The notes: generated from the sequence alone by a model not told the origin. 64,000 nt of DNA from an uncultured Gammaproteobacteria bacterium (GCA_964596525.1 CAZQUL010000001.1:460830-524829), one strand, 5' to 3'. Numbered from the stretch's first letter, positions 2,833 to 63,519 are shown. Made by a program: numbers and translations.

Positions 2833-5800
2833 ATGTTCCAACGCGATCAATTGCAAGCCATGGACTTCGACGCCATCCGCCTCAAACTGGCGAGCCCGGA
2901 TGTCATCAAAGGCTGGTCTTTTGGCAAAGTAGAAAAACCCGAAACCATCAATTACCGCACCCAGAAACCGGAACGCGGTGGCTTGTTCGCCGAAGAAATC
3001 TTCGGGCCGACCAAAGACTACGAATGCCACTGCGGCAAGTACAAGAAAATTCGTTACAAAGGCATCGTCTGTGATAAATGTGGCGTAGAAGTCACCTACG
3101 CGCTCGTTCGCCGTGAACGCATGGGCCATATCGAACTCGCGGCTCCGGTGTCGCATATCTGGTTCTTGCGTTCCGTACCATCCAAAATTGGTTTGGTACT
3201 CGATCTCTCGGCCATGTCGCTTGAAAAAGTGATGTATTTTGCATCCTTCATCATCACCCACGTCGACGAAGAAGCCAAAAAACAGACCTTCGAACTCTTG
3301 CGCCAGGAATTCAAGACCAAACGCAAACAGCTCGACAAAGAGCGCGAACAATCCATCGAACGCGCCAACGCATCCAAAACCTCGGCCGAAGAACTCGAGA
3401 ACGTGGCTAATGAATTCGACCGCAAAGTGAAAGCGCTTGAAACCGATTTCCAGGCCGCGGACAAAGAACTCAAAGAGCTCCAGGTCCTTAAAATTATTTC
3501 CGAAACCCGCTACCAGGAGTTGTCGCTCCGTTACGGCCATCTTTTTGAAGCTGGCATCGGCGCCGAAGCCATCCACAAACTCCTCTCGCGCGTTGATCTT
3601 GAAGCCACGATGCAGCAGCTCACTGACGAGCAGGAAAAATCCAAAGGCGCGCGCCTCGAAGCCATCGTTCGCCGCAAAAAACTCCTTAAGAGTTTGCATA
3701 AAAACGGGTTGCGTCCGGAATGGATGGTACTAACTGTCCTCCCGGTTATCCCGCCGGATCTGCGCCCGATGGTCGCGCTCGATGGCGGCCGCTTTGCTAC
3801 CTCCGATTTGAACGACCTTTACCGCCGCGTCATCAACCGCAATAACCGCCTCAAGCGCCTCATCGAACTCGATGCGCCGGAAGTCATCTGCCGCAACGAA
3901 AAACGCATGTTGCAAGAAGCCGTCGACGCCCTTATCGACAACAACGCCCGCCACTCCAAAACCGTCACCGCTTCGACCGGCCAGAAACGCCAGCTCCGCT
4001 CGCTCGCCGACATCCTTAAAGGTAAGCAGGGCCGTTTCCGCCAGAATCTTCTTGGTAAACGTGTCGACTACTCCGGCCGCTCGGTTATCGTCGTCGGTCC
4101 GCAGCTCAACATCGACGAGTGTGGTTTGCCAAAACGCATGGCGCTCGAGCTCTTCAAGCCGTTCATCATGAGCGACATCATCAAACGCGAACTCGCTCAC
4201 AATGTGCGCAGCGCGAGCCGCTTCATTGAAGCGGAAAGCGACGAAGTGTGGGACATCCTCGAAGAACTCACGAAGAAAACCCGCGTGCTTTTGAACCGCG
4301 CTCCGACGCTGCACCGCCTCGGTATCCAGGCCTTCCGCCCGCGCCTCATTGAAGGTAAGGCCATCCAGCTCCATCCGCTCACCTGTACGGCCTTTAACGC
4401 CGACTTCGACGGTGACCAGATGGCCGTGCACCTTCCGCTTTCCGCCGAGGCCCGCTGGGAAGCTGAAAACCTTATGGCCGCCGAGAAAAACCTCCTCAAA
4501 CCGGCTACGGGTTTGCCAGTCGTTACTCCGAAACAGGACGTCGTACTCGGTTGTTTTTACATGACGAGCTACAACGCCGAAGATACAGGCGATGTAAAGA
4601 AATTCTTCGCGTCCGAACAAGAAGCCAAGCTCGCGTACCGCAGCCGCCTCGTGACGCTCCGCCAGCGCGTCAAGATTTTGCTCTCCCCGGAAACGATGAA
4701 CAAGTTCCCCGAAGGAACGGATCGTTTGGTGGAAACGTCGGTTGGCCGCCTACTCTTCAACGAAATCGTACCGAGCAAAATGCCGTTCTACAACGAGCAG
4801 ATCGACGTGAAAAAACTTTCCAAGGTCATTAGCTTGCACCTCGAATTCTACGGCCAAGAAAAGACCGCCTTCTTCCTCGACGACCTCAAGAACCTCGGGT
4901 TCCGCTACGCCACCCGCTCGGGCTTTTCGCTTGGCATGGAAGACTTCCCGCGCATCGAAGCCAAACCCGAAATTCTCAAAGAAGCTGATAAAAAAGTAGA
5001 AGAAATCGAAGATCAGTATGCTAATGGTTTGCTCACCCAGGCCGAACGCCATGCTGCGATCATCGAAATCTGGACCGGCGCCAAAGATAAAGTCATTGCC
5101 GGTAACAAAACCATCCTCAACAAGAACGGTCCCGTGTATGCCATGATCGATTCGGGTGCCCGCGGTTCCTACGGTCAGCTTGGTCAGGTTATGGGTATGA
5201 AAGGTTTGGTACAGTCGCCGTCCGGTGAAATCATTGAAATGCCGATCAAAGGCAACTTCAAAGAAGGTTTCACGTCGCTTGAATATTTCATCTCTTCGCA
5301 CGGTACGCGTAAAGGTCTTTCCGATACGGCTCTTCGTACCGCCAACGCCGGGTACCTTACCCGCCGTTTGGTCGACGTATCGCAAGATGTCATCGTTGTT
5401 GAAGACGATTGCGGTGAGAACATCGGCGAAGTCTTTACTGTTGAGCAGAGTAAACAAATGGGTGAGAAACTTGCTGACCGCGTGTGGGGTCGCTACACTG
5501 CTTCGGCCCTTAAGCACGACGGCAAAACCATCTTGGAGAAAGGTGAAATTATCGACGACAAGATGGCTCGCGAACTCGACAAAATGGGCGTACAGTCCGT
5601 GCACGTGCGCAGCATCTTGCAGTGCCGTTTGCCCAAAGGCGTCTGCCGCAAGTGCTATGGTTTCGATCTCTCCAACAATAAACCGGCTGAAATGGGTACC
5701 GCTGTCGGCATTATCGCCGCGCAATCCATTGGTGAACCGGGTACACAGCTGACCCTTCGTACTTTCCACGCCGGTGGTGTTGCTGGTGGCGATATTACGC

Positions 5801-6759
5801 AAGGTTTGCCGCGTGTCGAAGAACTTCTTGAAGTGCGCGCTCCCAAACACCAAGCCTTTTTGGCTGGCGTGTCGGGTAAAGTGGAAATTGAAGATGCTGA
5901 AGGTCGTGTGGTTACCAACGAATCCGGCAAGAAGATTTTTGAGGGTCGCGGTGGTCAGAAGATCGTCAAGATCCACTTCGAGGGTCAGGATGAGTTTGCT
6001 GTCAAATTCAAGAAAGAAGACGAAGTATCGGTAAAAGACGGTGCTACCGTAGAAAAAGACCAGGTGCTCGTCGTACGCGGTTCGACCGGCGAAGAAGTGA
6101 AAGCTCCGTACGGCGGTACCGTGAAAGTCACTAAGAACCAGATCGCGTTGGCATACCAAGGCCCGCGCGTCCACGAACATCTTATTCCGCTTGGCTACAA
6201 GATCCTCGTCAAAAATGGCGATGTGGTAGAACGCGGGGATCGTCTGACGGACGGCAGTATCAGCCTCCACGAACTCCATGAATATAAAGGCCGACCGGCT
6301 GTGCAGCGCTACGTACTTGAAGAAGTACAGGCCATCTATTCGTCGCAGGGTCAAAAAGTAAACGACAAGCACGTTGAACTCATCATCCGCCAGATGTTTA
6401 GTCGTGTACTCGTCGAAGACGCCGGTGATACCGAACTTCTCCCGGGCGAAACCATCGAAAAAGCGCACTTCGAATTCAATAACCAGCAGATCAAGAAAAC
6501 GGGCGGCAAAGCAGCTACGGCTCGCGAAATGCTTCTGGGTGTAAGTAAGGTCGCGCTTACGACGCAGAGCTTCCTCTCGGCAGCGAGCTTCCAGGAAACC
6601 GCGCGCGTACTCATCAACAGCGCTTCGACCGGCAAGATCGACTACTTGGACGGCCTCAAGGAAAACGTCATTATCGGCCGCCTCATTCCGGTCGGCACTG
6701 GTTTCAATCAGGAGCAAGAGCTCGACATGAGCGTAAAGAAAGAAGAAACGACTGCGTAA
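2833..6759 (+). CDS. rpoC: DNA-directed RNA polymerase subunit beta'
   Basis: 1308 aa. Zn-finger CHCGKYKKIRYKGIVCDKCGVEV and catalytic NADFDGDQM motif are present. Sits directly after rpoB. Confidence 0.97.
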   Translation: MFQRDQLQAMDFDAIRLKLASPDVIKGWSFGKVEKPETINYRTQKPERGGLFAEEIFGPTKDYECHCGKYKKIRYKGIVCDKCGVEVTYALVRRERMGHIELAAPVSHIWFLRSVPSKIGLVLDLSAMSLEKVMYFASFIITHVDEEAKKQTFELLRQEFKTKRKQLDKEREQSIERANASKTSAEELENVANEFDRKVKALETDFQAADKELKELQVLKIISETRYQELSLRYGHLFEAGIGAEAIHKLLSRVDLEATMQQLTDEQEKSKGARLEAIVRRKKLLKSLHKNGLRPEWMVLTVLPVIPPDLRPMVALDGGRFATSDLNDLYRRVINRNNRLKRLIELDAPEVICRNEKRMLQEAVDALIDNNARHSKTVTASTGQKRQLRSLADILKGKQGRFRQNLLGKRVDYSGRSVIVVGPQLNIDECGLPKRMALELFKPFIMSDIIKRELAHNVRSASRFIEAESDEVWDILEELTKKTRVLLNRAPTLHRLGIQAFRPRLIEGKAIQLHPLTCTAFNADFDGDQMAVHLPLSAEARWEAENLMAAEKNLLKPATGLPVVTPKQDVVLGCFYMTSYNAEDTGDVKKFFASEQEAKLAYRSRLVTLRQRVKILLSPETMNKFPEGTDRLVETSVGRLLFNEIVPSKMPFYNEQIDVKKLSKVISLHLEFYGQEKTAFFLDDLKNLGFRYATRSGFSLGMEDFPRIEAKPEILKEADKKVEEIEDQYANGLLTQAERHAAIIEIWTGAKDKVIAGNKTILNKNGPVYAMIDSGARGSYGQLGQVMGMKGLVQSPSGEIIEMPIKGNFKEGFTSLEYFISSHGTRKGLSDTALRTANAGYLTRRLVDVSQDVIVVEDDCGENIGEVFTVEQSKQMGEKLADRVWGRYTASALKHDGKTILEKGEIIDDKMARELDKMGVQSVHVRSILQCRLPKGVCRKCYGFDLSNNKPAEMGTAVGIIAAQSIGEPGTQLTLRTFHAGGVAGGDITQGLPRVEELLEVRAPKHQAFLAGVSGKVEIEDAEGRVVTNESGKKIFEGRGGQKIVKIHFEGQDEFAVKFKKEDEVSVKDGATVEKDQVLVVRGSTGEEVKAPYGGTVKVTKNQIALAYQGPRVHEHLIPLGYKILVKNGDVVERGDRLTDGSISLHELHEYKGRPAVQRYVLEEVQAIYSSQGQKVNDKHVELIIRQMFSRVLVEDAGDTELLPGETIEKAHFEFNNQQIKKTGGKAATAREMLLGVSKVALTTQSFLSAASFQETARVLINSASTGKIDYLDGLKENVIIGRLIPVGTGFNQEQELDMSVKKEETTA

Positions 6760-6780
6760 AATTCATCGAATAGTTACGAC

Positions 6781-6815
6781 AAAACTCTCCTCTATCGCAG
6801 GAGAGTTTTGTTATG
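6781..6815 (+). terminator. Intrinsic terminator after rpoC
   Basis: 12-bp stem caaaactctcct/aggagagttttg with loop ctatcgc, followed by a T-rich tail. Confidence 0.6.
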
Positions 6816-6938
6816 CCTGGCTTTTTTGCGATCGCAAACCTCTAGATCTAAATCTAGTAGTTACCCCGAGTATATCTTGACGTATGTTAAAAAATATAGT
6901 ACCCAACTGGTGGTAGCCTGCTTGAAACTGAGGAGGGG

Positions 6939-7538
6939 ATGATGCTGGCCAAGAAAGTACTGTGTTTTGGACTGCTTTTTGCTTTCGGGTGTGCTGCACA
7001 GAGCAATGCACTTTCGCCGCGCGAGACCGGTAATATCCGAGATTTGCGGCTACCTGTGCATCTTGTTCACGCTCGTGCTGCATCATCGGACGAGTCGCGT
7101 GAAAATATTCCGGCGACCTGCGATGCGGCCGATGTCGTAATCGCCGCGCATATATTTGATACGCAGGTTAGGAGGCAATTTGAGGGCATCAACACGGATC
7201 TTTATGGGATGCGTGATGCCATTGCTGCACTCAAGCCGGAGGGAGAGAATGGCGCGTGCACCGGCGTTCTTCCGCTCCGCAGAGCGCTGACTGATCTTCG
7301 ATTACGCATGCAGGAGGCCGAAGCCGAGCTTTCTTTGCCGCGCCTGGTGTGCCACGTGGCAGTTCCGCGTCGACTCCTCAGCTGCCTCAAGGCCGATTAC
7401 AACCGGGCAATACGGGCGGCCAACAACACTTCATGCACGAACGCGGCGTTTTCCGAAGATATGACCTTTTCGGACCAAGAAGCACTCTGTTTGCTCGATA
7501 GTTATCCTCGTATTTTTGCCACCATGATCAGTGAATAA
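6939..7538 (+). CDS. Secreted hypothetical protein (199 aa)
   Basis: N-terminal signal peptide MMLAKKVLCFGLLFAFGCAAQSNA. GAGGAGGGG SD precedes the ATG. Confidence 0.6.
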   Translation: MMLAKKVLCFGLLFAFGCAAQSNALSPRETGNIRDLRLPVHLVHARAASSDESRENIPATCDAADVVIAAHIFDTQVRRQFEGINTDLYGMRDAIAALKPEGENGACTGVLPLRRALTDLRLRMQEAEAELSLPRLVCHVAVPRRLLSCLKADYNRAIRAANNTSCTNAAFSEDMTFSDQEALCLLDSYPRIFATMISE

Positions 7539-7613
7539 ACCGTACGCCGCCAGGGAACCCCGGGCGGCTTTGCATTTTAGACAGCGGAGTGTTACGCTCC
7601 CGGCCGAGGAGGG

Positions 7614-8948
7614 ATGCCGATGCCGCACAATATCCGTAGAAGTGAAAATACCTCATATCCGCCCGGTCCGACGGGAAATCTCATCTTCGGACATTTGTTC
7701 CAGATGCGCGAGTACGAAGATTTTTTCCGGCGCGGGTTTGCGCAGTTTCCCAAACTCTTTTCGCTGCGCCTCTTGCACCAACCGACGGTGGTGACAAATT
7801 TTCCACCGTACGTGCAAGAAATTTTGGTGAAGGCGCACCAGATATTTTTGCGGCCCAAGCGTGGTTTGGAGGTGCTTCATCCCATCCTCGGCGATTCGAT
7901 CGTGACAAGCGAGGGAGAGGTGTGGCGTTCGCAGCGCGAGGCCCTTAAACCCGGGTTCCAGCGCTCTTCGCTCGCCGGCCTCCATACGCTCATGGTGGCC
8001 GAAATCGAGCGTCTCATGGACCGATGGGAGGAATACGCGCACCGCAACGTAGCGGTCAATATGCCCGAGGAGATGAGTGCTTTGACCTTTGGGATCTTCG
8101 CTCGGACGCTTCTTGCCATGCCGAATGCCGGTCATCACGCCGGAGTTTTGGCACAGGCCTTCAAGTTCGTGTTTGAGCGGGTGTTTGAGGACTTTCACAG
8201 TCTCTTTATCGAACGCCGGCTGCCAACCGCGCGCAATCGATCGTTCCGACTTTCCAAGACGACTATCGACACCATCATCGATGATCTCTTGGTACAACGG
8301 GCGACGGCGCATTCTAAAGAGCGCTCCCTCATCGATATGCTGCTTGAGCATGGTTTTGCCGAGCGGACGGTGCGAGAGTTGCGCCAGGTGATCGTAACGC
8401 TGGTACTGGCCGGTTACGAAACCACAGCAAATACCCTGACGTGGCTCTGGTATTACGCCGCGCGCTATCCAGAATCGTGGAGCGCTTTACCGGTACTCTC
8501 GAGCGTCAAAAATCCAACCGATGATACAAGCGAAGCGGCTGAACGGTTCATTAACGAGACGCTTCGCCTGCGCACCCCGCTTGCACTCGTGGCGCGCCAG
8601 AGTATGCGTCCGTACGAGCTCGGTGGTTTTCAGCTTAAGCCCGGGACGCTCGTGCTTTTGCCCTTGCGTCTTATCCACCAGCATCCGGATTTTTGGATTG
8701 AACCGGATGCATTCGTCCCCGCACGCTTTACCCGCCCGATCGCGCCGGGTTCGTTCATGCCGTTTCTCCTCGGGCCGCACCGCTGCCTCGGAGCGCAGTT
8801 CGCGCTTGATGAGATGATCCTCACCGCGCTCATGGCCCGCGCGCGTGGTTTCTCTTTTCATCTCTTATCGCCCACCGAGCCGGTCATTGAGCCAGGCCCT
8901 TTTCATCGCCCTAAGCAGCTGTGGGTGAAGATCAAGCGTGGCGTCTAA
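7614..8948 (+). CDS. Cytochrome P450 monooxygenase
   Basis: Heme-thiolate loop FLLGPHRCLGAQFA (FxxGxxxCxG). ExxR motif ETLRLR. Length ~444 aa. Confidence 0.85.
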   Translation: MPMPHNIRRSENTSYPPGPTGNLIFGHLFQMREYEDFFRRGFAQFPKLFSLRLLHQPTVVTNFPPYVQEILVKAHQIFLRPKRGLEVLHPILGDSIVTSEGEVWRSQREALKPGFQRSSLAGLHTLMVAEIERLMDRWEEYAHRNVAVNMPEEMSALTFGIFARTLLAMPNAGHHAGVLAQAFKFVFERVFEDFHSLFIERRLPTARNRSFRLSKTTIDTIIDDLLVQRATAHSKERSLIDMLLEHGFAERTVRELRQVIVTLVLAGYETTANTLTWLWYYAARYPESWSALPVLSSVKNPTDDTSEAAERFINETLRLRTPLALVARQSMRPYELGGFQLKPGTLVLLPLRLIHQHPDFWIEPDAFVPARFTRPIAPGSFMPFLLGPHRCLGAQFALDEMILTALMARARGFSFHLLSPTEPVIEPGPFHRPKQLWVKIKRGV

Positions 8949-8964
8949 CGTTTAACGTCCTTGT

Positions 8965-8988
8965 GCCAGCTTTCCGGCTGGCTTTTTA
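8965..8988 (+). terminator. Intrinsic terminator after the P450 gene
   Basis: gccagc-tttcc-ggctggc followed by TTTTT. Confidence 0.6.
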
Positions 8989-9119
8989 ATAGGTTCTTTG
9001 GCGGCTTCTTTAAAACTTTAGTGCGAAAAACTTGACTCTACCTACGGTTTGTGCCAAGATAAGCCGTTGCCTTGGGTTACGAGACAGCCTTTTTAGTTCT
9101 TTCATTCGAGGAGGTTCCC

Positions 9120-9542
9120 ATGAACAGGATGAACAGGAAGAGTCTTGTTGAGGTTGTTGGGGCACTCTGGACCGGGGGCGCTGCGCTCTACGCCACGATT
9201 CAGGTGCCGTTCCGTGCCAGCCATCCGGGTCTCGACCAGGTAATTACCATCTCTCCGGGAGACGGGCGGTTGTTCCTCTGCGGCGAGCTCACCGCGGAAA
9301 ATGTCGACCTGATGAAACCCGCGGTGCGCGAAGTAGACGGGATGAAGCCTAACGAGCACATCACGTTCTACCCGGAAGAGATCTTCCACATGCTCCGCGA
9401 CCGGCAGAAGGTCGTGGTGTGCGGCTACACGAGCTCGCTGCGCACCGAGCGCGGATTCTTCGCGGTTCTCTGGTATGAAGAGCGCCACACGGAGCGCGGT
9501 GCTATCTTCGGTGGCAAGATCGAGGTCTATAAGCCCGTTTGA
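9120..9542 (+). CDS. Hypothetical protein (141 aa)
   Basis: ORF MNRMNRKS... with GAGGAGG SD 6 nt upstream. No recognisable domain. Confidence 0.55.
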   Translation: MNRMNRKSLVEVVGALWTGGAALYATIQVPFRASHPGLDQVITISPGDGRLFLCGELTAENVDLMKPAVREVDGMKPNEHITFYPEEIFHMLRDRQKVVVCGYTSSLRTERGFFAVLWYEERHTERGAIFGGKIEVYKPV

Positions 9543-9561
9543 TAGGTGCCATCCAGATAAT

Positions 9562-9598
9562 CCCACCGCCTGGTTCGTATGAATCGGGCGGTTTTTTG
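9562..9598 (+). terminator. Putative intrinsic terminator
   Basis: ccgcc...ggcgg stem followed by TTTTTT. Confidence 0.45.
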
Positions 9599-9645
9599 AA
9601 TGCTTCAGTTTTTAAGAAGTGCGTGGTACGATGAGGTAGCTTGAA

Positions 9646-11712
9646 TTGTTGAATAGCGCGGTTATGCCTATCAATTTTGAACGAGGACTCAACCCTGAAC
9701 AGCTTACGGTCGTTACCCACGGTGATGGACCATGCTTAGTTTTGGCTGGGGCGGGAAGTGGTAAAACGCGCGTCATTACCTACCGCGTCGCGTATCTCCT
9801 CGAACAAGGCGTGCACCCGAATGAAATACTCCTCGTGACGTTCACCAACAAAGCGGCCGAAGAAATGAAGCATCGTATCCATCATCTGGTCACGGGGAAA
9901 GAATCGTCTGATCGTAAGAAAATAATTCCCTGGTCTGGAACGTTCCACCATATTGCGTACCGGCTGCTCAGCATGTACGGCGGCGTGCTCGGGTATAAAA
10001 CTATCACGATCCTCGATAGCGATGACAGTGAATCCCTCCTCAAGCTCTGCGTCAAAGAATCTAAGCCTGACTCCGAAGAGCGTTTTCCGTCCCCCAAAGT
10101 TATTGGATCGCTCATTTCGTACGCGGCCAATGCTGAGATAACGCTTGAGCAGGCGATCGATGAAAAAAATCCGGGCTGGTCACAGTTTATCAAACCCATT
10201 AAAACTATCGCCGAGCGCTATGCTATGCGCAAACGCGAAGCCTTCGCCATGGATTTCGACGATCTTCTTGTCAATCTGGTAAAACTACTCGGTGGTGAGC
10301 AGGTTCGCGAGCGCCTCGCCCATCAGTTTCGGTACATTCTCGTTGATGAGTACCAGGATACCAATAAATTGCAGGCCATCATTATCCGCCAGCTAGCGAG
10401 CGTGCACCGTAATGTTCTCGTGGTTGGTGATGATGCACAGAGCATCTACTCTTTCCGCGCGGCCGACATTGAGAATATCTTGCGCTTTGAGGATCAGTAT
10501 CCGGGGGCGCGCGTTTTTAAGCTGGAAACAAATTATCGGTCAACGTCGGAAATTTTGGCTGTAGCGAATGAGAGCATTTCTCACAACATTCATCAGTATA
10601 AAAAAGAACTCAAGAGTCTTGATAAACACGGTCCTAAGCCGGTCATCCGCCCGCTCCTTGACCAGAAAGCAGAAGCCGATTTCGTGGTACGCGAAATTGA
10701 AAAGCTGATCGATGAAGGAGTTAAGCCGTCGGAAATCGCCGTGCTGTTTAGAGCTGCGTTTCATGCGCAGATGCTCGAGCTTGAGTTGACGCGCTCGGGT
10801 ATTACCTATGATTACCGCGGGGGACTCAGGTTTTTTGAGCGTGCCCACGTTAAGGATGTGCTCGCGTATCTGCGCCTTCTTACCAACCTGGCTGACACCA
10901 CGGCGTGGTTGCGTGTCTTGCAGCACGAAGAAGGGATCGGGCCGGTGGCGGCGCAGAAAATCGCGGCGGCCATGAAAAACGTGAATACTCTCGCGGAGGT
11001 GCTCGAAACCGGACGCAAAACCCTGTCAGGCAAAGCGCTGGCCGGATTCGAAAAGTTCGGTGAAGTATGGAATGCGCTTGTTTCCGAAGCAAAACCAGAA
11101 ACGATTATCCAAGAACTTCTTGCCTCGCCATACCGCAGTTATCTCGATGTCACCTTTGTTGATAGTTCCGATCGCATCCAAGATATTGAGCAGCTCAAAA
11201 CGTTCGCGGCGCGCTACGAGAACCTGGCTGATTTTCTCGCCGAAGCGAGTTTGAACGAGCAGTTCGCCAAACCGGATGATGCGGTAAAATCAGCGGCTGA
11301 GCGTATCGTGCTGTCTACTATCCACCAGGCTAAAGGGCTCGAGTGGTCCGTCGTATTTGTCGTCAATCTTTCAAACGGTGCGTTTCCCAACGAGCGCGCG
11401 TTTAAAGAAGGCGGGCTCGAGGAAGAGCGCCGGTTATTTTACGTTGCCACGACGCGTGCCAAAGAGCGGCTGTATTTCACCTATCCGCTCGCAGGTGGAA
11501 ACTTCGGCGACATGCTTACGGTGCCAAGCATGTTTCTCGATGAATTCGACCGCGATTTATGTGACGATTTTTCGCTCCTCAAGAAACCAACCACATCGTT
11601 CCTTGATGATGGCGACGTCACCTATGTAAACGAAGATGAAGAATATGGTAATTCCTCAAAACCGCTTAAAATAAAACCGGGAAGTTTTTTGCGGAGTTTG
11701 GAAGATCTTTAG
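9646..11712 (+). CDS. UvrD/PcrA/Rep-family SF1 ATP-dependent DNA helicase
   Basis: Walker A LAGAGSGKTRV. Blocks LVTFTNKAA and VDEYQDTN. C-terminal UvrD-like helicase domain. Confidence 0.9.
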   Translation: MLNSAVMPINFERGLNPEQLTVVTHGDGPCLVLAGAGSGKTRVITYRVAYLLEQGVHPNEILLVTFTNKAAEEMKHRIHHLVTGKESSDRKKIIPWSGTFHHIAYRLLSMYGGVLGYKTITILDSDDSESLLKLCVKESKPDSEERFPSPKVIGSLISYAANAEITLEQAIDEKNPGWSQFIKPIKTIAERYAMRKREAFAMDFDDLLVNLVKLLGGEQVRERLAHQFRYILVDEYQDTNKLQAIIIRQLASVHRNVLVVGDDAQSIYSFRAADIENILRFEDQYPGARVFKLETNYRSTSEILAVANESISHNIHQYKKELKSLDKHGPKPVIRPLLDQKAEADFVVREIEKLIDEGVKPSEIAVLFRAAFHAQMLELELTRSGITYDYRGGLRFFERAHVKDVLAYLRLLTNLADTTAWLRVLQHEEGIGPVAAQKIAAAMKNVNTLAEVLETGRKTLSGKALAGFEKFGEVWNALVSEAKPETIIQELLASPYRSYLDVTFVDSSDRIQDIEQLKTFAARYENLADFLAEASLNEQFAKPDDAVKSAAERIVLSTIHQAKGLEWSVVFVVNLSNGAFPNERAFKEGGLEEERRLFYVATTRAKERLYFTYPLAGGNFGDMLTVPSMFLDEFDRDLCDDFSLLKKPTTSFLDDGDVTYVNEDEEYGNSSKPLKIKPGSFLRSLEDL

Positions 11713-43054: not shown

Positions 43055-43399
43055 ATGCAAAGCGCAGATTCGTTTAAAACATCGATGCGGCGGGGGCTTA
43101 TTGAGTACGCGGTGCTCCTCATTATCGCCCAGGGCAAAGTGTATGCCGGGGATATTCTGGAGCTCCTCAAGCGGGCCGATCTCATCGTCGTAGAGGGGAC
43201 GCTCTATCCGCTCCTCAATCGCCTCAAGACGCAGGAACTTCTTACCTACGCATGGGAAGAATCGCGCGAAGGCCCGCCGCGCAAGTACTACAGCCTCACC
43301 GACGAAGGCAAGCGTGCGCTCAAAGATTTTGACGGCACGTGGAATCATTTGGTCTCTTCATTCACCACTTTACGCAGTACCTATGAAAACAACCATTAA
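43055..43399 (+). CDS. PadR-family transcriptional regulator
   Basis: Winged-helix blocks GTLYPLLNRL...EGPPRKYYSLTDEGKRAL. Confidence 0.8.
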   Translation: MQSADSFKTSMRRGLIEYAVLLIIAQGKVYAGDILELLKRADLIVVEGTLYPLLNRLKTQELLTYAWEESREGPPRKYYSLTDEGKRALKDFDGTWNHLVSSFTTLRSTYENNH

Positions 43400-43991
43400 T
43401 GTAACGCTCGGCGGGCAGCTCTTCGTGCTCGAAGAGGATGCTTATCAAGCATTAAAAAATTACCTCGACGAGGTGGAGCGCATTGTAGCGACGTATCCGG
43501 AACGCGCAGACATCATGGCCGACATCGAAGCGCGCTTGGCCGAAGAGCTGAAGCGCTCTGTAAGTGGTGGCGTGGTAACGACCGGCGTTTTGAGCGGAAT
43601 GCTCACGCGGCTTGGCACGCCCGAGGAACTCCGTCGCGAGTTGGGCGGGGCGGAACGCGAAAACGTTGCTGCTTCTTCGTCAGCTGGTTCGAGTTCTCAT
43701 TCTGCCGCGCCGCGCAAGAGCCGCCGCTTGTACCGTGATCCGGATGATCAGATCGTATCGGGTGTATGCTCGGGTATCGCCGCCTACATCGGGGTTGATC
43801 CAACGTGGGTGCGCATCGGTTTCGCGGTCGGCACGCTCGCGTGGGGAGCCGGGGTCTTCGTCTACCTCCTCCTTCTCATTATCGTTCCGGAAGCGAAAAC
43901 GCCGGAGCAAAAAGCCGAGCTCCATGGCGAGCCGCTCCGTTTGGCAGATATTGTAACGAGCGTTCGCAACGCCTTTGAGAAGAAAAAATAA
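43383..43991 (+). CDS. PspC-domain membrane protein
   Basis: LYRDPDDQIVSGVCSGIAAYIGVDPTWVRIGFAVGTLAWGAGVFVYLLLLIIVP is the PspC domain. Overlaps the PadR gene by 17 nt. Confidence 0.75.
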   Translation: MKTTINVTLGGQLFVLEEDAYQALKNYLDEVERIVATYPERADIMADIEARLAEELKRSVSGGVVTTGVLSGMLTRLGTPEELRRELGGAERENVAASSSAGSSSHSAAPRKSRRLYRDPDDQIVSGVCSGIAAYIGVDPTWVRIGFAVGTLAWGAGVFVYLLLLIIVPEAKTPEQKAELHGEPLRLADIVTSVRNAFEKKK

Positions 43992-44076
43992 CCTTCGATC
44001 GAACATCATAAAACCGCTCGGTGAAAGCCGGGCGGTTTGGCGTTACGGATATTCACCGTTTGTTGCGGTGCAGTGT

Positions 44077-44493
44077 TCATTCCCCAAAGAAAAAAGCACG
44101 TAATTTCTTGCGCTGCACCGCGCGCCAGGTAGTGAAGAACACCGGACGTTCAAACGGCGCGGCACGCTCGGCATCAATGCCCATTTTTTTAAACCACTCC
44201 TCGATCCGTTCGGGAGAAGAATGGGCGGGGTCGTATTCGACATTAATAATACCTTCGCTTGTTTCTGGTTCGTAATAGAGCCTGCACACGACAGGCGAGT
44301 GAGGGTTATAGGGAATATGCGCTCGGCCTGCAGCATATTTTTCTTCGAGGAAAAGAATATCGCCATGATACGTAGCCTCTAGTGCAGCGTCGAGCCAGCC
44401 CTTAAAAAAGAAACGGATTATTTTGTAGGGGAAGTCTTTGCCAATAACAAAAACGCCTTCTTTGTTTGCCCAGGAAAGATAGTTTTTGGACAT
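44077..44493 (-). CDS. Hypothetical protein, paralog 1 of a tandem pair (138 aa)
   Basis: Shares I-RF-FKGW...FL-EE...GI..ERA-PF blocks with the adjacent ORF. Confidence 0.55.
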   Translation of the reverse strand: MSKNYLSWANKEGVFVIGKDFPYKIIRFFFKGWLDAALEATYHGDILFLEEKYAAGRAHIPYNPHSPVVCRLYYEPETSEGIINVEYDPAHSSPERIEEWFKKMGIDAERAAPFERPVFFTTWRAVQRKKLRAFFFGE

Positions 44494-44497
44494 ATTT

Positions 44498-44917
44498 TCA
44501 ATTCCTCTCGAGATTCAGAAGCCATTTTTTAAATCTGCTCATGAGCGACTCTGGCTGCGAGATAAAAGGATCTGCTCGCTCAAGTTGTATGCCTAGTTCC
44601 ATGAAAAATTTCTCAGCTTTTTCGAGTTCTTCTCCTTGAGATGAAAGAATAAGCATTTCAAGGATATCTCCGGCCTGATCACCGCTAGTAAGGCCTGGAC
44701 TCTGTGGTTGCATGTAGATATTATCAAGTGTCCATGGTGGGGGAGGTGCACACCTCCCATGTTGATGTTCCTCGAACAAAAAACCGACGCTGTTATGAAA
44801 TTGTTCTTGGAGATGCCTATTTCTCCAACCTTTAAATACAAAACGATAGATACGGACTTCTTTTCGGGCACTCCCTAACGCTGTATAACGATTTCCCTTT
44901 TTTGAGATGAAGAGCAT
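44498..44917 (-). CDS. Hypothetical protein, paralog 2 of a tandem pair (139 aa), low local GC (~43%)
   Basis: IYRFVFKGW...FLFEE...GIQLERADPF. Separated from its paralog by 4 nt. Confidence 0.55.
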   Translation of the reverse strand: MLFISKKGNRYTALGSARKEVRIYRFVFKGWRNRHLQEQFHNSVGFLFEEHQHGRCAPPPPWTLDNIYMQPQSPGLTSGDQAGDILEMLILSSQGEELEKAEKFFMELGIQLERADPFISQPESLMSRFKKWLLNLERN

Positions 44918-45073
44918 AGCGAAGTACTTTTAGCACTACAATACATGGTTCCCAAAATCCCGAGTAGCTTTTACTGTGCATAAAAAACAACAACCGCCTG
45001 GTAAAAAAGCGGTTGGGAGCGGTGGCGGACTTCTTGCTCAGGTGTGGAAAGATTTGTTGCTCGCCGAGCATGC

Positions 45074-45484
45074 CTAGCCGAAGGCTCTCACGCGGCAGTC
45101 GAGTCCGTACGCCGCAATGGCATTTTGGATGCCGGAAATCATTTCATCGCGATAGCGCACGGCGAGATTCTTCTTTTTGGAGGAAAAAACGTGCACTTTA
45201 CAGGTAGGTACGACTCCCTTTTTTAACCAGAGAAGAAGTACGAACGGCCGTTCGACGTGAGAGTTTGGCATGGCGACGACGCCGCAGAAGCCGGTTTCAT
45301 AGAGCGTCTCGGCGCTTACCGTATCGCTGTCCCAGGAAGAGTGGGGCAGGATCTTTTCGCGCACTGCACTCACGGCTTCGATGATGACCTTAGCCGTGGA
45401 TAGCATACGGGCCCGCTCAACGCTCTTCGCGCTCTGTTCGGGGCTGGAAAGGCCTAAAAGATAGCGCATTATTCTACAGAACAT
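45074..45484 (-). CDS. Hypothetical protein (136 aa), first gene of the minus-strand unit containing the paralog pair
   Basis: ORF with AAGGAGG directly upstream. No recognisable domain. Confidence 0.4.
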   Translation of the reverse strand: MFCRIMRYLLGLSSPEQSAKSVERARMLSTAKVIIEAVSAVREKILPHSSWDSDTVSAETLYETGFCGVVAMPNSHVERPFVLLLWLKKGVVPTCKVHVFSSKKKNLAVRYRDEMISGIQNAIAAYGLDCRVRAFG

Positions 45485-48392: not shown

Positions 48393-48467
48393 TGGTGCTC
48401 TCGAAAGGAATCGAACCTTTATTTTCGGCTTCGGAGGCCAATGTCCTATCCGTTGAACGACGAGAGC
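48393..48467 (-). tRNA. tRNA-Arg (anticodon CCG)
   Basis: The reverse complement folds as a cloverleaf. Acceptor GCTCTCG/CGAGAGC, D-stem GTTC/GGAC, anticodon loop CTCCGAA, T-arm AAGGTTCGATTCCTT, 3' ACCA encoded. Confidence 0.85.
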
Positions 48468-48559: not shown

Positions 48560-49177
48560 TTATGTGGACGGCGGCGGAAGCTCGATAAGCACGCAGGAGA
48601 GCTCTCCACCGAGGAGGCGCAGCCGGAGCCGTTCGGCCACCGGGCGCAGTGCCGGAAAAAAGTAGAGTTTGCGCGGCGCACAGGAAGTGCGCAGTATTTC
48701 CACCATCTCCATTTCGATCGGGAGTGCCTGGTCGTACTCCGCGGGCGGGGGATCTCCGGTCCATGGATAGCAGAGGTGGATGCGGTTCGTTTCCGTTAGA
48801 AATCCTTCCAGGTGGTGCGGGATGCTGCGCCATCTCCGGTACGTTGCGCGGTCGATGAGGAGCGTTCCGTCACGGCTGACATCGAGCGCGTACTGGCCCT
48901 CGCGGAATATAACGGCCTCGTGGCGTTTTCTTTGTTCGTTTTCGATGGCGCGTATTGCATTCCCAACCACCAGCCCAATGGGCATAAACCCCAAGCAGCA
49001 GAAAAAGTTGCCGAGCCCAAGGAGCGTAAACACGAAGACTACGACCAGCGCCCACCCGAAGCCGCCCATGATAACGAGCGCTAAGAGCCCGATTTCTGAT
49101 ACCTGCGAGAACGGCTTCTTGATGTGTGCAAGCTGCCCGGCATTCTCTGAACCTTGATACTTTACCAGAGCACTCAT
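48560..49177 (-). CDS. Paralog C of the 2-TM membrane protein family
   Basis: GGAGGAG SD. TM pair, then a soluble domain ending RKLYFFPALRPVAERLRLRL. ATGA start-stop overlap with the upstream 100-aa gene. Confidence 0.7.
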   Translation of the reverse strand: MSALVKYQGSENAGQLAHIKKPFSQVSEIGLLALVIMGGFGWALVVVFVFTLLGLGNFFCCLGFMPIGLVVGNAIRAIENEQRKRHEAVIFREGQYALDVSRDGTLLIDRATYRRWRSIPHHLEGFLTETNRIHLCYPWTGDPPPAEYDQALPIEMEMVEILRTSCAPRKLYFFPALRPVAERLRLRLLGGELSCVLIELPPPST

Positions 49178-49476
49178 CGTTGACTCCTCCGTGCCTGTTC
49201 GGCGGCTATACGGCTCGCTTGCTCGTTGCGGATTTTTTTCACCACGAACGGAATGCAGAATCCAGTGGCGAGAGCGATGGCGAGTCCCACTACCGGGTGC
49301 AATCCGATGAGACCACAGACGATGGCGGTTAGCACATCGCCCCAGAAGAGCGGTGTCACTATACCGAGAGCATACAAGACGCCGAGAGTCAGTTTCGAAA
49401 ACGGGGGAGGGGTGCGCGCGATATCTCGGGTAGCGTCGTGCGTCGTGGTTTGGACTAATGAATTGAAAGAACTCAT
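49174..49476 (-). CDS. Small 2-TM protein carrying the PPP motif (100 aa), co-transcribed with paralog C
   Basis: GGAGGAA SD. RTPPPFSKLTLGV followed by two TM helices. Confidence 0.65.
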   Translation of the reverse strand: MSSFNSLVQTTTHDATRDIARTPPPFSKLTLGVLYALGIVTPLFWGDVLTAIVCGLIGLHPVVGLAIALATGFCIPFVVKKIRNEQASRIAAEQARRSQR

Positions 49477-49515
49477 TATCAGTTCCTCCGTGATCGTGTG
49501 GTGCAGTAATGGATC

Positions 49516-49544
49516 AACATACCACCTCGGTTCTGGCGCGTCAA
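49516..49544 (-). promoter_or_regulatory. Promoter TTGACG-17-TGgTATGTT of the C'-C unit
   Basis: Family architecture on the minus strand. Confidence 0.5.
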
Positions 49545-49582
49545 TTACTGCCGGTTGGGCGTGCGTGGCATAAGTAGGTTTC

Positions 49583-49613
49583 CAAAATTGAAACGACCTG
49601 CCAGGGCAGGTCG
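49583..49613 (-). terminator. AAACGACC-family terminator after paralog B
   Basis: aaattgaaacgacctgcc-ag-ggcaggtcg. Confidence 0.5.
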
Positions 49614-49643
49614 TAAGGGTGAGGAGAACTCGTCTGCAAACGG

Positions 49644-50267
49644 TCAGTCCTTGAGCTCTACGAAATCACACTGCTTCTCGCGGTTACCAAACTCACGCTG
49701 CAGGTCGTAGAGCTCGCGCTGTAACCGCTTGGCGACCGGGGCGAACTCGCTCTGGTAGAACAGCGTGCGCGGCGCGGGCATGTTGAGCAGGAGACGCCAT
49801 AGGTCTCCTTCCATGATCGAAGACCCGTCTGCAGCGCTGTGCCAGAACAGCACGATGTGGGGTTCGTCCGCAGAAGCGAGCTGCTTTTTGTGGAGCGCCC
49901 AGTCCCGAAACGTCTGGTGATCGACCAGGTAGAGCTTATGGGTGAAAGACGCCCGATGTTCTTGGTCAAGACCGTAGAGAACGCTTTGGCCTCGGTGGTA
50001 AGCATCGGCCATGAGCCGGTATAGGTGGTCTTTATAGGCGCGCCAGCACAGGTATATCCAGCAGATCGCCGAAATCGCCACGATGACGTACCCTGCCGTC
50101 TCGTTGGCGATGTAGATGTTGTTGAGGGCGAGGAGAATCTGTTGAGGAACGTAAATCAGGAGTAAGGTGCTGACGGTCCAGATTCCTACATCGAGCAACG
50201 TGCGCGGCGGGGGGGTGAGGCAAAGATCCATTGCCAGATCAGACGGGGTGGGATTCTTGGTTTTCAT
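49644..50267 (-). CDS. Paralog B of the 2-TM membrane protein family (207 aa)
   Basis: LTPPPRTLLDVGIW, two TM helices, then LYLVDHQTFRDW...FAPVAKRLQRELYDL. Confidence 0.7.
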   Translation of the reverse strand: MKTKNPTPSDLAMDLCLTPPPRTLLDVGIWTVSTLLLIYVPQQILLALNNIYIANETAGYVIVAISAICWIYLCWRAYKDHLYRLMADAYHRGQSVLYGLDQEHRASFTHKLYLVDHQTFRDWALHKKQLASADEPHIVLFWHSAADGSSIMEGDLWRLLLNMPAPRTLFYQSEFAPVAKRLQRELYDLQREFGNREKQCDFVELKD

Positions 50268-50392
50268 GCTTCTTCTCCGTTTCGAGTTGAGAATTACCCT
50301 TGTGCGGATGAGTTGTGGATTTACAGTATACGTTTGTTCTTATCAAAGAGCAATCGTGTTCCACCGTAAGTTGAGTTTCACGATAACAGAAA

Positions 50393-50421
50393 ATGATATC
50401 ACTTTTCGTTCGTCAGGTCAA
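50393..50421 (-). promoter_or_regulatory. Candidate promoter TTGACC-17-TATCAT for paralog B
   Basis: Minus-strand reading; implies a 5' UTR of about 120 nt. Confidence 0.4.
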
Positions 50422-50463
50422 TATCAGAGATTGATGTATTTTCCACGGTGTGTAGCTACAGTA

Positions 50464-50489
50464 ATTGAAACGACCCGTGGTGCGGGTCG
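50464..50489 (-). terminator. AAACGACC-family terminator after paralog A
   Basis: gtaattgaaacgacccg-tggtg-cgggtcg. Confidence 0.5.
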
Positions 50490-50514
50490 TGGGGATGGGG
50501 GCGTGGTGAGACGC

Positions 50515-51150
50515 TTACTGCGGCAGTTCGAATATCCGGCTGAAGCGACCGAGGGCCTCGAGCTTCTTCTGGAGGCGCTCGGCGACCGGCTTGAGGTGCG
50601 GCGGGTAGTAGATTTTCCGGCGCGGCATCATCATGAGCCGTTTGGCGATCCGCTGCTCCCGACTTCGATCTTCGATGTTGGCGCGTTCTGCGTGCCACGG
50701 CTCGAAGATGGAGAGTTTGCGGTAGTTGACCTGCTCGTTGAAGAGCTGTGCCGCTTCCATATCGGGACGGAATGCTTCGGAGTCGACGAGGGTGAGCCGA
50801 TCGAAGATGAAGGTCTGGTGCGTGCGGATTCGCTCGCTGAGATAGGGGGCGACCTTACGGATCGCCTCGCCTGCCAGACGTCGCAGGTGGTTCTTCTCCT
50901 CGCGTGTCACGAGGATGTACGGCAGTATGAAGTAGCAGGCGTAGGTGAGAATCCTGAGCCACGGCCACCAGTATGCACCCGCGAGCTTCTTTGTTATTCC
51001 GGTGAAGAGGGCCCAGGGTATGCCACTGAGGCCGCAGATGATCATGATGAGCATGATCCACACGGCCCGCATGAAGAGAGTGCGTGGCGGGGGCAGGAGT
51101 ACGAGCTTGCGGACATCGTCGAAGGTCTCGATTTTTACCAAAGAACGCAT
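50515..51150 (-). CDS. Paralog A of the 2-TM membrane protein family (211 aa from the ATG)
   Basis: CTGGAGGATG SD. LLPPPRTLFMRAVW, two TM helices, then FIFDRLTLVDSEAFRPD...PHLKPVAERLQKKLEAL. The track's TTG-extended start at 51219 overlaps the -35 box. Confidence 0.7.
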   Translation of the reverse strand: MRSLVKIETFDDVRKLVLLPPPRTLFMRAVWIMLIMIICGLSGIPWALFTGITKKLAGAYWWPWLRILTYACYFILPYILVTREEKNHLRRLAGEAIRKVAPYLSERIRTHQTFIFDRLTLVDSEAFRPDMEAAQLFNEQVNYRKLSIFEPWHAERANIEDRSREQRIAKRLMMMPRRKIYYPPHLKPVAERLQKKLEALGRFSRIFELPQ

Positions 51151-51190
51151 CGTTTCATCCTCCAGGTCCAGGGTTTCGGGGTAACGGAGC

Positions 51191-51219
51191 AGCTTACCAC
51201 GCTTTTTGGCGTAAGTCAA
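51191..51219 (-). promoter_or_regulatory. Promoter TTGACT-17-TGgTAAGCT for paralog A
   Basis: Family architecture on the minus strand. Confidence 0.5.
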
Positions 51220-61439: not shown

Positions 61440-61982
61440 CTAGAGGGGGAAGTCGCTCGCGATCGATGCGTCGTCGGCGACCTTCACGGGTGCGGGCTGG
61501 CTGCGCATCTCGACGGGCGCTTGCCGGCGCAGAGTCACGGTGAACTCGATCGCACCGAGCGTCGACTTGAGCTTGATCGCGCGGTCGAGCACGCCCGGCC
61601 CTGGAGTCAGGTTCTTCACCGGGTCGTCGATGTCCTGGTAGGACAGGACCGCTTCCACGACCGGGCCTTTGCCCCGGTTGCAGAACACCGTGAGCTGTCC
61701 AATGGTATCGTCCACCTGGATTAAGTTGCCGTAGCAGGCGGAGCGCAGGGTGACCTGCCAGCCGTCGCTCGAGACCGAGGCGATGCTGAGCGTTCCCCAG
61801 CCCGAGGGCTCGAAGGAGCTCCGCTCGTTCTGGAAGATCCGCTTGAACCAGGCCGGCTGCTCCTCCACCTTCGGGGCTTCATGGTGCGAGGAGCGGTGGT
61901 GCTTGCGGGCCTCGGCGGAGGGCGGGGTGGACAGGGTGAAGGCGGTGGCGAGAGCGGCGGTGAAAAGAGCGATCTTGCGCAT
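61440..61982 (-). CDS. Secreted hypothetical protein (181 aa from the ATG at 61982)
   Basis: GGAGG SD. Signal peptide MRKIALFTAALATAFTLSTPPSAEA. The track's 62057 start is upstream of the SD. Confidence 0.6.
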   Translation of the reverse strand: MRKIALFTAALATAFTLSTPPSAEARKHHRSSHHEAPKVEEQPAWFKRIFQNERSSFEPSGWGTLSIASVSSDGWQVTLRSACYGNLIQVDDTIGQLTVFCNRGKGPVVEAVLSYQDIDDPVKNLTPGPGVLDRAIKLKSTLGAIEFTVTLRRQAPVEMRSQPAPVKVADDASIASDFPL

Positions 61983-62047
61983 GGTTCCTCCGTTGTGGTC
62001 CAGTACACTCCAGGTCGAATTTTCGGGTCCTGGATTCTCAACGTCAT

Positions 62048-62076
62048 AGTTTACCATAAAAAGGTGGTTTTGTCAA
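62048..62076 (-). promoter_or_regulatory. Promoter cTTGACAaaa-17-TGgTAAACT (minus strand)
   Basis: Shares an identical 15-mer with the promoter at 30508..30536. Confidence 0.6.
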
Positions 62077-62170
62077 GATATGGTAGGAATAGGATATAAG
62101 TATGTAAAAAACGCTTTGTTGAGAGCAAATAAACGCTTTGCCTCTTGGTATAATTTACTTTTGATTAGTC

Positions 62171-62199
62171 TTGACATTCGCCACCACAATACATATAAT
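62171..62199 (+). promoter_or_regulatory. Consensus sigma70 promoter TTGACA-17-TATAAT upstream of nusA
   Basis: Both hexamers match the consensus perfectly with a 17-nt spacer. Confidence 0.75.
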
Positions 62200-62205
62200 T
62201 CTTCT

Positions 62206-62237
62206 CGAAGAGAGTGCTCCTAAGCGCTCTCTCTTCG
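62206..62237 (+). promoter_or_regulatory. 9-bp inverted repeat cgaagagag-N14-ctctcttcg between the two nusA promoters (candidate operator or leader hairpin)
   Basis: Perfect arms. The inner agtgct/agcgct pair is also symmetric. Confidence 0.4.
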
Positions 62238-62244
62238 TTAAACG

Positions 62245-62253
62245 TGCTATAAT
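62245..62253 (+). promoter_or_regulatory. Extended -10 element TGcTATAAT 28 nt upstream of the nusA ATG
   Basis: TGn plus a perfect TATAAT. Confidence 0.5.
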
Positions 62254-62280
62254 TACCTACTACTCATTTTTAAATCTCGT

Positions 62281-63519
62281 ATGGCCTCAGAAATTACCAA
62301 AGCCATTCAAATGCTCTGTGACGAAAAGAAACTTTCGTTCGAAGCCGTGATGGAAACCATCGAAGCCGCGCTCGCGGCCGCGTACCGCAAGGATTTCGGT
62401 AACAAGCAGCAGAATATCAAAGTGAAGTTCGATCCGGAAACCGGCGACATGCAGGCCTGGGACGTTAAAACCGTCGTTGAAGATATTGACGAAGAAACCC
62501 TCACTAAGGCACAAGAAGAAATGACGGCGCTGCGCGAAAAAGCCCGTCTCGAAAACCGCGAACTCACCGAAGAAGAAGTGGCTCATTTGCCGCGCTTCAA
62601 CCCCAAAAATGACATCATGGTGAAAGATGCCAAAGAACTTCCGGCTGCGGGCAAGAAAGTCAAAGTCGGCGACGTGCTCGAAATCCCGCTCGAAATCCCG
62701 CATGCGTTTGGCCGCATGGCTGCACAGACCGCTAAACAGGTCGTTATCCAAAAAGTCCGCGAGGCGGAACGCACCTCGGTATTCGGCGAATTCAAGAATC
62801 TCGAACACACCATCATCCAAGGCACGGTGCAGCGCATCGAAGCGCGCAAGATTTTGGTTGACCTTGGCAAGCTCACCGGCGTCTTGCCGCTCGAGCAGCA
62901 GATGCGCGGTGAGCGGTTCCGTCCGGGTGGCCGCATCAAAGCGTATGTCGTATCGGTTGACATGACCATTCGCGGTCCGGAAGTACTCCTCTCGCGTGCG
63001 CATCCCGACATGGTGAAAGAAGTGTTCAAGCAAGAAATCCCCGAAGTGGCCGATGGCGCCATCGTCATCAAGGGCGTTGCCCGCGAGCCGGGATACCGCG
63101 CCAAAGTGGCGGTCGCAGCCGTCGACGAATCGCTCGATCCGATCGGTTCGTGTATTGGCCAGCGGGGGAGCCGTATCAGCACCATCATCGAAGAGCTGGG
63201 TGGCGAGAAAGTTGATCTCATTGAATTCCGCGAAGACCCGGCTGAATACATCGCCCGTGCACTGGCTCCGGCCAAAGTGGCTAAAGTTACGCTTCATAAT
63301 GTTGAGCATGTGGCGGTTGCCGAAGTGGTTCCTGACCAGTTTTCGCTCGCGATCGGCAGAAGCGGCCAGAACGTACGTCTCGCTTCGGATTTGACCGGTT
63401 GGCGCATCACTGTAAAAGAACAAGGTGGTGCACAAGAAGCCACGAGCGAGGGTGTAGTGAAGGGTGAAGGTTCTGAAACCGAAGAGGTCAAAGAAGAAGC
63501 GAAGGAAGAAAAAGAATAG
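62281..63519 (+). CDS. nusA: Transcription termination/antitermination factor NusA
   Basis: N-terminal domain, S1, two KH domains (GxxG: IGQRGSRI and IGRSGQNV), and an acidic C-terminal tail. Confidence 0.95.

Follow-up and report, generated by a model that had tools for sequence, protein, structure and literature searches.

A tandem pair of divergent paralogous genes from a rare, uncurated protein family in an AT-rich patch near gyrA of a genome recorded as an uncultured gammaproteobacterium

Within the 64-kb stretch of DNA analysed here, referred to below as the window, two small paralogous genes, designated copy B and copy A, are arranged in tandem on the minus strand. The pair lies between a gene encoding a PspC-domain protein, which is convergent with copy A, and an unrelated orphan gene of 136 codons, which adjoins gyrA and is divergent from it. 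The features of the region, in order of position, are as follows.

44011–44038, minus strand: weak hairpin (RNAfold) between the convergent copy A and PspC-domain genes
44077–44493, minus strand: copy A, a 138-aa ORF with a family HMM match and 47.7% GC
44340–45000, no strand: low-GC patch of about 650 bp, comprising the 5' part of copy A, the whole of copy B and the spacer upstream of B
44498–44917, minus strand: copy B, a full-length ORF of 139 aa with a family HMM match and 42.9% GC
44504–44509, minus strand: GAGAGG, the Shine–Dalgarno-like motif of copy A as read from the sequence, within the 3' end of copy B
44981–45015, minus strand: terminator-like hairpin followed by TTGTTTTTTA, in the spacer between the 136-aa ORF and copy B
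45074–45484, minus strand: orphan 136-aa gene, an ORF outside the family of A and B

The three minus-strand ORFs of the original prediction, made from the sequence alone, were reproduced at the same coordinates, and the 4-nt gap that it placed between the two copies corresponds to 44494–44497. The sequence blocks it quoted as common to the pair were found in both copies. Paralogy of A and B was likewise upheld, with 30% identity over 100 aa (BLASTP E 1e-11). Copy A is already present in public gene calls (P0001). Copy B is a real gene that these calls have either missed or truncated: it is uncalled in a contig from a second sample (L001), and in L002 and at NCBI only the C-terminal 71 aa are called (44498–44713, P0003). 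The exact 139-aa sequence of copy B is absent from a collection of 15 billion proteins. Its reading frame is the best of the six by codon log-likelihood, with a score some 1.8 sd under the average for 31 long reference genes of the window, and every invariant residue of the family described below is kept. Over 3 kb, the sole difference between the window and the second sample's contig is an S78N change in a variable loop of copy B (window position 44685). The locus is present in the assemblies SRR11567528 and SRR11567520.

The mean GC content of the window is 53.8%, and 60 long ORFs within it have a GC of 54.7±4.0% and a GC3 of 61.2±8.9%. Copy B is the lowest amongst these 60 ORFs (GC 42.9%, GC3 37.1%). 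Copy A is mildly low (GC 47.7%, GC3 49.6%), while the 136-aa ORF has the native composition (GC 54.3%, GC3 65.7%). GC is not uniform across the window, and the lowest 650-bp segment in the 64 kb starts at 44341 (41.7%, z −3.5). The low GC originally described for the upstream copy is therefore confirmed, although the background is 53.8% for the window or 54.7% for its genes, and not about 57%. The atypical composition does not extend over all three genes, since the 136-aa ORF is native and copy A only mildly low. At a 420-bp scale, the lowest GC of the window (41%) is found at about 61950–62450, seemingly between an ORF on the minus strand (61440–62057) and another on the plus strand (62281–63519), and not at the paralogue locus.

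The same three genes had been described as a single unit, and this was not sustained. A spacer of 156 nt separates the stop of the 136-aa ORF (45074) from the start of copy B (44917), and contains a hairpin at 45015–44991 with a 9-bp stem and a 7-nt loop, followed by TTGTTTTTTA (−12.1 kcal/mol, z −3.08 against shuffled sequences). As a class, terminator-like sites are not commoner in the region than in shuffles (4 found, 2.7 expected). The length of the spacer, the hairpin with its T-run and the native GC of the 136-aa ORF together lead to a reading of one gene plus two genes, and the 136-aa gene is probably a separate transcription unit from B–A. No promoter was identified upstream of copy B, so that some read-through into it from the 136-aa gene could also occur.

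Translation signals differ amongst the three genes. A strong ribosome-binding site, AAAGGAGGA, is present for the 136-aa gene and no Shine–Dalgarno motif for copy B; the GAGAGG of copy A precedes the ATG by 10 nt and lies within the last part of copy B. A Shine–Dalgarno-like motif lies upstream of only about one-quarter of the long window ORFs checked. The 4 nt from the stop of B to the start of A, and the location of the ribosome-binding site of A within B, suggest translational coupling. It is probable that the two genes B and A form a single expression unit with coupled translation, an operon structure deduced from these signals. Beyond copy A, the weak hairpin at 44011–44038 has no clean T-run after its stem; with some uncertainty, it may act as a terminator common to copy A and the convergent PspC-domain gene.

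The 136-aa ORF had been regarded as unannotatable, and there is no match for it, or for copies A and B, in Pfam, NCBIfam or PADLOC. Word-indexed homology searches with the 136-aa ORF and with copy A each returned the query alone. A single-sequence model of the 136-aa protein (pLDDT 75) gave no significant fold match.

On the other side of the pair, at 43055–43991 on the plus strand, a gene for a PadR-family regulator precedes that for the PspC-domain membrane protein, with a possible overlap. A PadR–PspC pairing is also present in loci of metagenome-assembled genomes labelled Bacteroidales, Prevotella, Porphyromonadaceae, Peribacteria and Saccharibacteria; this breadth suggests an old two-gene unit, seemingly unrelated to A and B. 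Relatives of the PspC-domain protein of the window, found in a genome-collection scan, have at most 40% identity (45% over one short segment), and their loci have nothing in common with the window beyond the PadR–PspC pair. Close to A and B there is a second cluster of paralogues, on the far side of gyrA and beside a tRNA-Arg gene (48393–48467). It spans 48560–51219 on the minus strand and encodes three single-transmembrane proteins of 205 aa (48560–49177), 207 aa (49644–50267) and 234 aa (50515–51219), related at BLASTP E 1e-9 and 2e-4, together with a 100-aa ORF with two predicted helices at 49174–49476.

An exhaustive HMMER scan of 1.84 billion representative proteins with a profile of A and B (E<=0.001) recovered 21 proteins, two of which, P0001 and P0003, are encoded in the window itself. 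The 19 other members have lengths of 112–190 aa. Each of A and B has matches to independent members of the family, with E values from 1e-9 to 2e-15; those to P0004 by BLASTP are at 1e-13 and 2e-15. The family HMM matches copy A at E 1e-36 and copy B at E 4e-40 over profile positions 3–136, scores that are partly circular because the profile contained both copies. The motifs of the family are R[YF]IFDGW, GR..P, G.i.ev.Y, PE.IE.F and GI.vHRA[DE]PF.KP...W, represented in copy A by RFFFKGW, GR..P, GIDAERAAPF.RP and a final W. Both copies match the domain over its whole length, carry the F-x-G-W, G-R-x-x-P and G-I-x-x-x-R-A-x-P-F blocks and fall within the range of 110–190 aa. F30 and W33 are invariant in the family, and G32, E52, P61, G105, P113 and F114 are nearly so. 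Judged from the alignment, the conserved residues are structural in character, and not catalytic.

The family, named 'FDGW/HRAEPF' here after its motifs, is rare, patchy in distribution and uncurated, and has so far been found mostly on groundwater metagenome contigs and in Patescibacteria assemblies. The sole named member is a 'hypothetical protein [Patescibacteria group bacterium]', and, of the other members with fetched contigs, most derive from small-filter-fraction metagenomes of Hainich groundwater and similar samples. The window is part of a 1.34-Mb contig, and its organism may, on this indirect basis, also be a Patescibacterium. Amongst the 21 aligned sequences (A, B and 19 relatives), searches of Pfam, PHROGs and PADLOC gave no match of note; the single PADLOC-DB v2 match, to Cas5 (E 0.015), is at chance level. 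A profile search of PDB sequences with the family found nothing, and no profile of a housekeeping family was matched. Homologues were not detected by tblastn of copy B against phages or of copy A against plasmids. The degenerate DNA pattern for GI..[HY]RA[DE]PF.KP was found in no viral contigs, and only in two metagenome contigs that were already known.

The two copies are not grouped in a neighbour-joining tree, which is star-like: the A–B distance is 0.86, compared with 0.73 for A and P0005 and 0.79 for B and P0004. As the tree does not pair them, a sister relationship of A and B rests on two rare residues that they have in common. The D of the FDGW motif and the H of the HRA motif covary within the family: D pairs with H in 12 members, eight have L or V with D or E, and the combination of K31 with E109 is confined to A and B. 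This suggests that the two positions are in contact in the folded protein, and that a single ancestor of A and B already had the swapped charges. Such an ancestor would point to an old tandem duplication instead of two separate acquisitions. A type II toxin–antitoxin pair was also considered for the two genes and rejected; they are paralogues of each other, and no toxin–antitoxin match was obtained in Pfam or PADLOC.

If copy B were a decaying, non-functional duplicate, with copy A as the sole working gene, the omission of B by gene callers would be explained. Besides being uncalled or cut to 71 aa in public data, copy B has a codon-usage score well under the mean of the long reference genes and lacks a Shine–Dalgarno motif, and the only polymorphism in 3 kb between the two samples is non-synonymous and falls within it. 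Decay is nevertheless very improbable. The frame is intact over 139 codons in DNA of 43% GC, copy B outscores copy A on the family profile, and no invariant residue has been lost. The missing Shine–Dalgarno motif is shared with most of the long ORFs checked, and the placement of the ribosome-binding site of A within B fits coupled translation of the two.

An AlphaFold2 model of copy A, built from the 21-sequence alignment (pLDDT 78.5, pTM 0.68), comprises an N-terminal beta-hairpin, a beta–alpha–alpha unit, a long loop of low confidence, a beta–alpha–beta unit and a C-terminal helix. The family protein is thus modelled as one ferredoxin-like alpha+beta domain of about 110–150 aa. Foldseek comparison of the model with PDB and BFVD gave nothing at E<=0.001; the best matches are ferredoxin-like domains of the HMA type (E 0.056). 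The original prediction could not assign the pair to a family, and profiles and structure prediction together have supplied a modelled fold class, but no curated family or significant fold neighbour. Proteins of the family have no signal peptide, and their C-terminal helix is amphipathic. In some members there is a hydrophobic anchor at the N or C terminus, and the charges on either side of it predict a cytoplasmic domain.

In most lineages other than that of the window, a family gene directly adjoins a gene for an exported protein, termed the partner here. The partner gene is immediately upstream in L006, L003/L004 and L010, which belong to one clade, and in L008/L009 and L015/L016. L028 contains two members: in its 176–1930 region, a partner gene (726–1427) lies between them (176–619 and 1484–1930). 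Identity of partners between lineages is only 26–35%, which indicates a linkage maintained in four divergent lineages. The partner has 233–251 aa, with an N-terminal hydrophobic segment ending in Cys, as in lipoproteins, and a C-terminal hydrophobic helix. Four Cys are invariant, as are G-C, F-D-x-H-x-A, C-x-G-x-x-E-S and C-x-C; the C-terminal half is conserved and the N-terminal half variable. There is no match for the partner in Pfam, NCBIfam or PDB, and nothing meaningful in PADLOC. A partner HMM run against a six-frame translation of the 64-kb window found no match. The 136-aa ORF was considered as a diverged copy of the partner and rejected as not homologous (hhalign probability 0.2%). 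Members without a partner occur in the window, L029 and L007, which suggests that family members can function by themselves or together with another factor.

The loci concerned are variable in content. Three members occur in L003, one of them an uncalled tandem copy at 5487–5879 that is 63% identical to its neighbour; this uncalled, full-length member mirrors the missed copy B. At 4715–5879 of L003, an NCBI Patescibacteria assembly, and in the same way in L004, the partner is split over two frames by a frameshift or an assembly error. In one clade, genes for PEGA-domain and giant proteins are situated near the members. Other neighbours include HicB, a HEPN/nucleotidyltransferase pair, methyltransferase, AAA_15/21 ATPases and transposases, which are typical of variable regions. 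In L015, a contig of 963 kb, genes for a PP2C-like phosphatase and two Ser/Thr kinases lie downstream of the partner and member genes (5153–9989), and methyltransferase, AAA_15/AAA_21 ATPase and transposase genes flank them. The designation of the pair as an accessory module agrees with the rare and patchy distribution, the AT-richness of family genes, the recurrence of multi-copy loci and the variable neighbourhoods.

A palindrome, GTGTATAAAG[A/C]ACAC followed by a T-rich tract, precedes each family gene of one clade by 25–40 nt (L003 1833–1847, 5451–5465 and 5961–5975; L006 5973–5987; L010 1002–1016; and also in L004, L005, L011 and L012). It occurs nowhere else in the 29 loci fetched, and its conservation exceeds that of the coding sequences (63–67% identity). 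Possible roles are those of an operator that overlaps an extended −10 box and of a terminator or attenuator. In the window, this palindrome is not present above chance.

Family genes are 4–12 GC points below the host locus in all six of the longer loci examined (L003, L006, L007, L008, L010 and L015), and AT-richness is thus a trait of the family. Such a trait fits a pool of mobile accessory genes. The nearest relatives of A and B are situated on contigs of 41–46% GC, and the low GC of the pair could in part reflect a family-wide bias instead of recent transfer. Neither flanking direct repeats nor mobility genes marking an insertion were found around the pair. Acquisition of A and B by horizontal transfer is most likely.

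The best overall explanation, to which we give about an even chance, is that B and A are an anciently duplicated, horizontally acquired and translationally coupled orphan pair encoding non-enzymatic binding proteins. A gene of this rare family of small proteins would have been duplicated in tandem long ago to give B and then A. Each family member would be a cytoplasmic, membrane-proximal, non-enzymatic binding partner of the lipoprotein-like exported protein, acting as an immunity protein, a chaperone or an adaptor at the inner face of the membrane, and the pair in the window would be an orphan version, its partner missing within the 64 kb. Conservation that is structural only, linkage to an exported protein and the presence of anchors or an amphipathic helix make a binding protein the most economical model. 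A cytoplasmic location is suggested by the predicted topology, and the binding role by adjacency in four independent lineages together with conserved residues of which none looks catalytic. The C-terminal helix of the partner ends the protein, however, and would leave little cytoplasmic surface for binding, which counts against the model.

Under the immunity or defence role originally put forward, A and B would be orphan immunity proteins directed against an exported, Cys-rich lipoprotein-like toxin of neighbours, or part of an anti-phage system. By analogy, an immunity-type role would fit the gene order, with a family gene immediately downstream of that for an exported protein in four lineages, the tandem or multi-copy divergent paralogues here and elsewhere, and the AT-rich composition. 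Conserved residues of structural character only, and neighbourhoods elsewhere with HEPN/nucleotidyltransferase, HicB, AAA_15 ATPase, methyltransferase and transposase genes, are also in its favour. However, PADLOC, Pfam, PHROGs and NCBIfam have no match for the family or its usual partner, the searches of phages and plasmids found no homologues, and the window has no toxin-like gene or enzymatic neighbour. In the partner, moreover, the C-terminal half is the conserved one and the N-terminal half the variable one, a pattern opposite to that of polymorphic toxins, and the protein seems to be anchored at both ends instead of released. On this balance an immunity or defence module is unlikely, and this part of the original prediction was not borne out.

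It is similarly doubtful that the family is a lineage-specific envelope or signalling factor, held at the membrane periphery by its amphipathic C-terminal helix and independent of the partner, for example in biogenesis of surface-layer or PEGA proteins or in a kinase/phosphatase pathway. The proximity of PEGA-domain proteins agrees with this, but is limited to one clade of members that are 65–80% identical and therefore counts as a single observation. The PP2C-like and Ser/Thr kinase genes downstream in L015, the membrane anchors of some members and the partner-free members of the window, L029 and L007 would also be accounted for. Against this, the window has no PEGA, kinase or phosphatase neighbours, and a family of 21 representative clusters is far too rare for a general envelope function.

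A bolder proposal, and a distinctly unlikely one, is that the family and its Cys-rich lipoprotein-like neighbour constitute an undescribed two-gene module, apparently confined to Patescibacteria, of a surface-anchored effector and a cytoplasmic protector or chaperone. If so, ultra-small episymbiotic bacteria could use the module in antagonism towards, or attachment to, their hosts or competitors, and A and B would be orphan protector genes kept against the effectors of neighbours. This would provide a handle on how candidate-phyla bacteria interact with other cells, a field in which most genes lack annotation. Independently of any such role, a protein family without an entry in Pfam, NCBIfam, PADLOC or PHROGs now has a conserved gene partner, and gene calls have been corrected for the missed or truncated copy B and for a second missed copy in another assembly. 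Taken as it stands, the locus is a further example of a hypothetical, lineage-specific family at a variable, AT-rich site, which would not surprise a specialist.

Amongst known systems, the closest likeness in fold is to the HMA domains (2k1r, 1kqk and 1osd), with which the model has an alpha+beta sandwich in common (about 90 columns, TM-score about 0.6 against targets of 72–80 aa, probability up to 0.97). At match E values of 0.06–0.3 and an identity of 13–20%, this likeness is one of fold class only. Unlike HMA domains, the family has no CxxC metal-binding motif or conserved Cys, copies A and B having one Cys each at non-aligned positions, and it adds the N-terminal beta-hairpin, the long variable loop and the C-terminal helix. 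Neither a Pfam match to HMA (PF00403) nor a GMxCxxC loop after beta-1 was found.

The class I chaperones of type III secretion (CesT, SycN/YscB and SpcU) are also small, acidic-to-neutral alpha+beta proteins encoded beside an exported protein, and are amongst the weak Foldseek matches (probability <=0.2, TM-score about 0.25). Family loci, however, have no type III secretion machinery, and the Sec/lipoprotein-type signal of the partner needs no such chaperone.

The immunity proteins of polymorphic toxin systems differ in that the family is not homologous to any curated immunity family, and its upstream partner has no recognizable toxin domain, a conserved C terminus and a seemingly membrane-anchored form. 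An immunity gene directly downstream of a toxin-domain gene was found neither in the window, where an unrelated orphan lies upstream, nor at the partner loci. There are nevertheless several features in common. The proteins are small and have no signal peptide, their genes often lie directly downstream of that for an exported protein, and their conservation is structural and not catalytic; as in orphan immunity arrays, divergent paralogues with AT-rich genes recur in tandem or in multiple copies within variable neighbourhoods.
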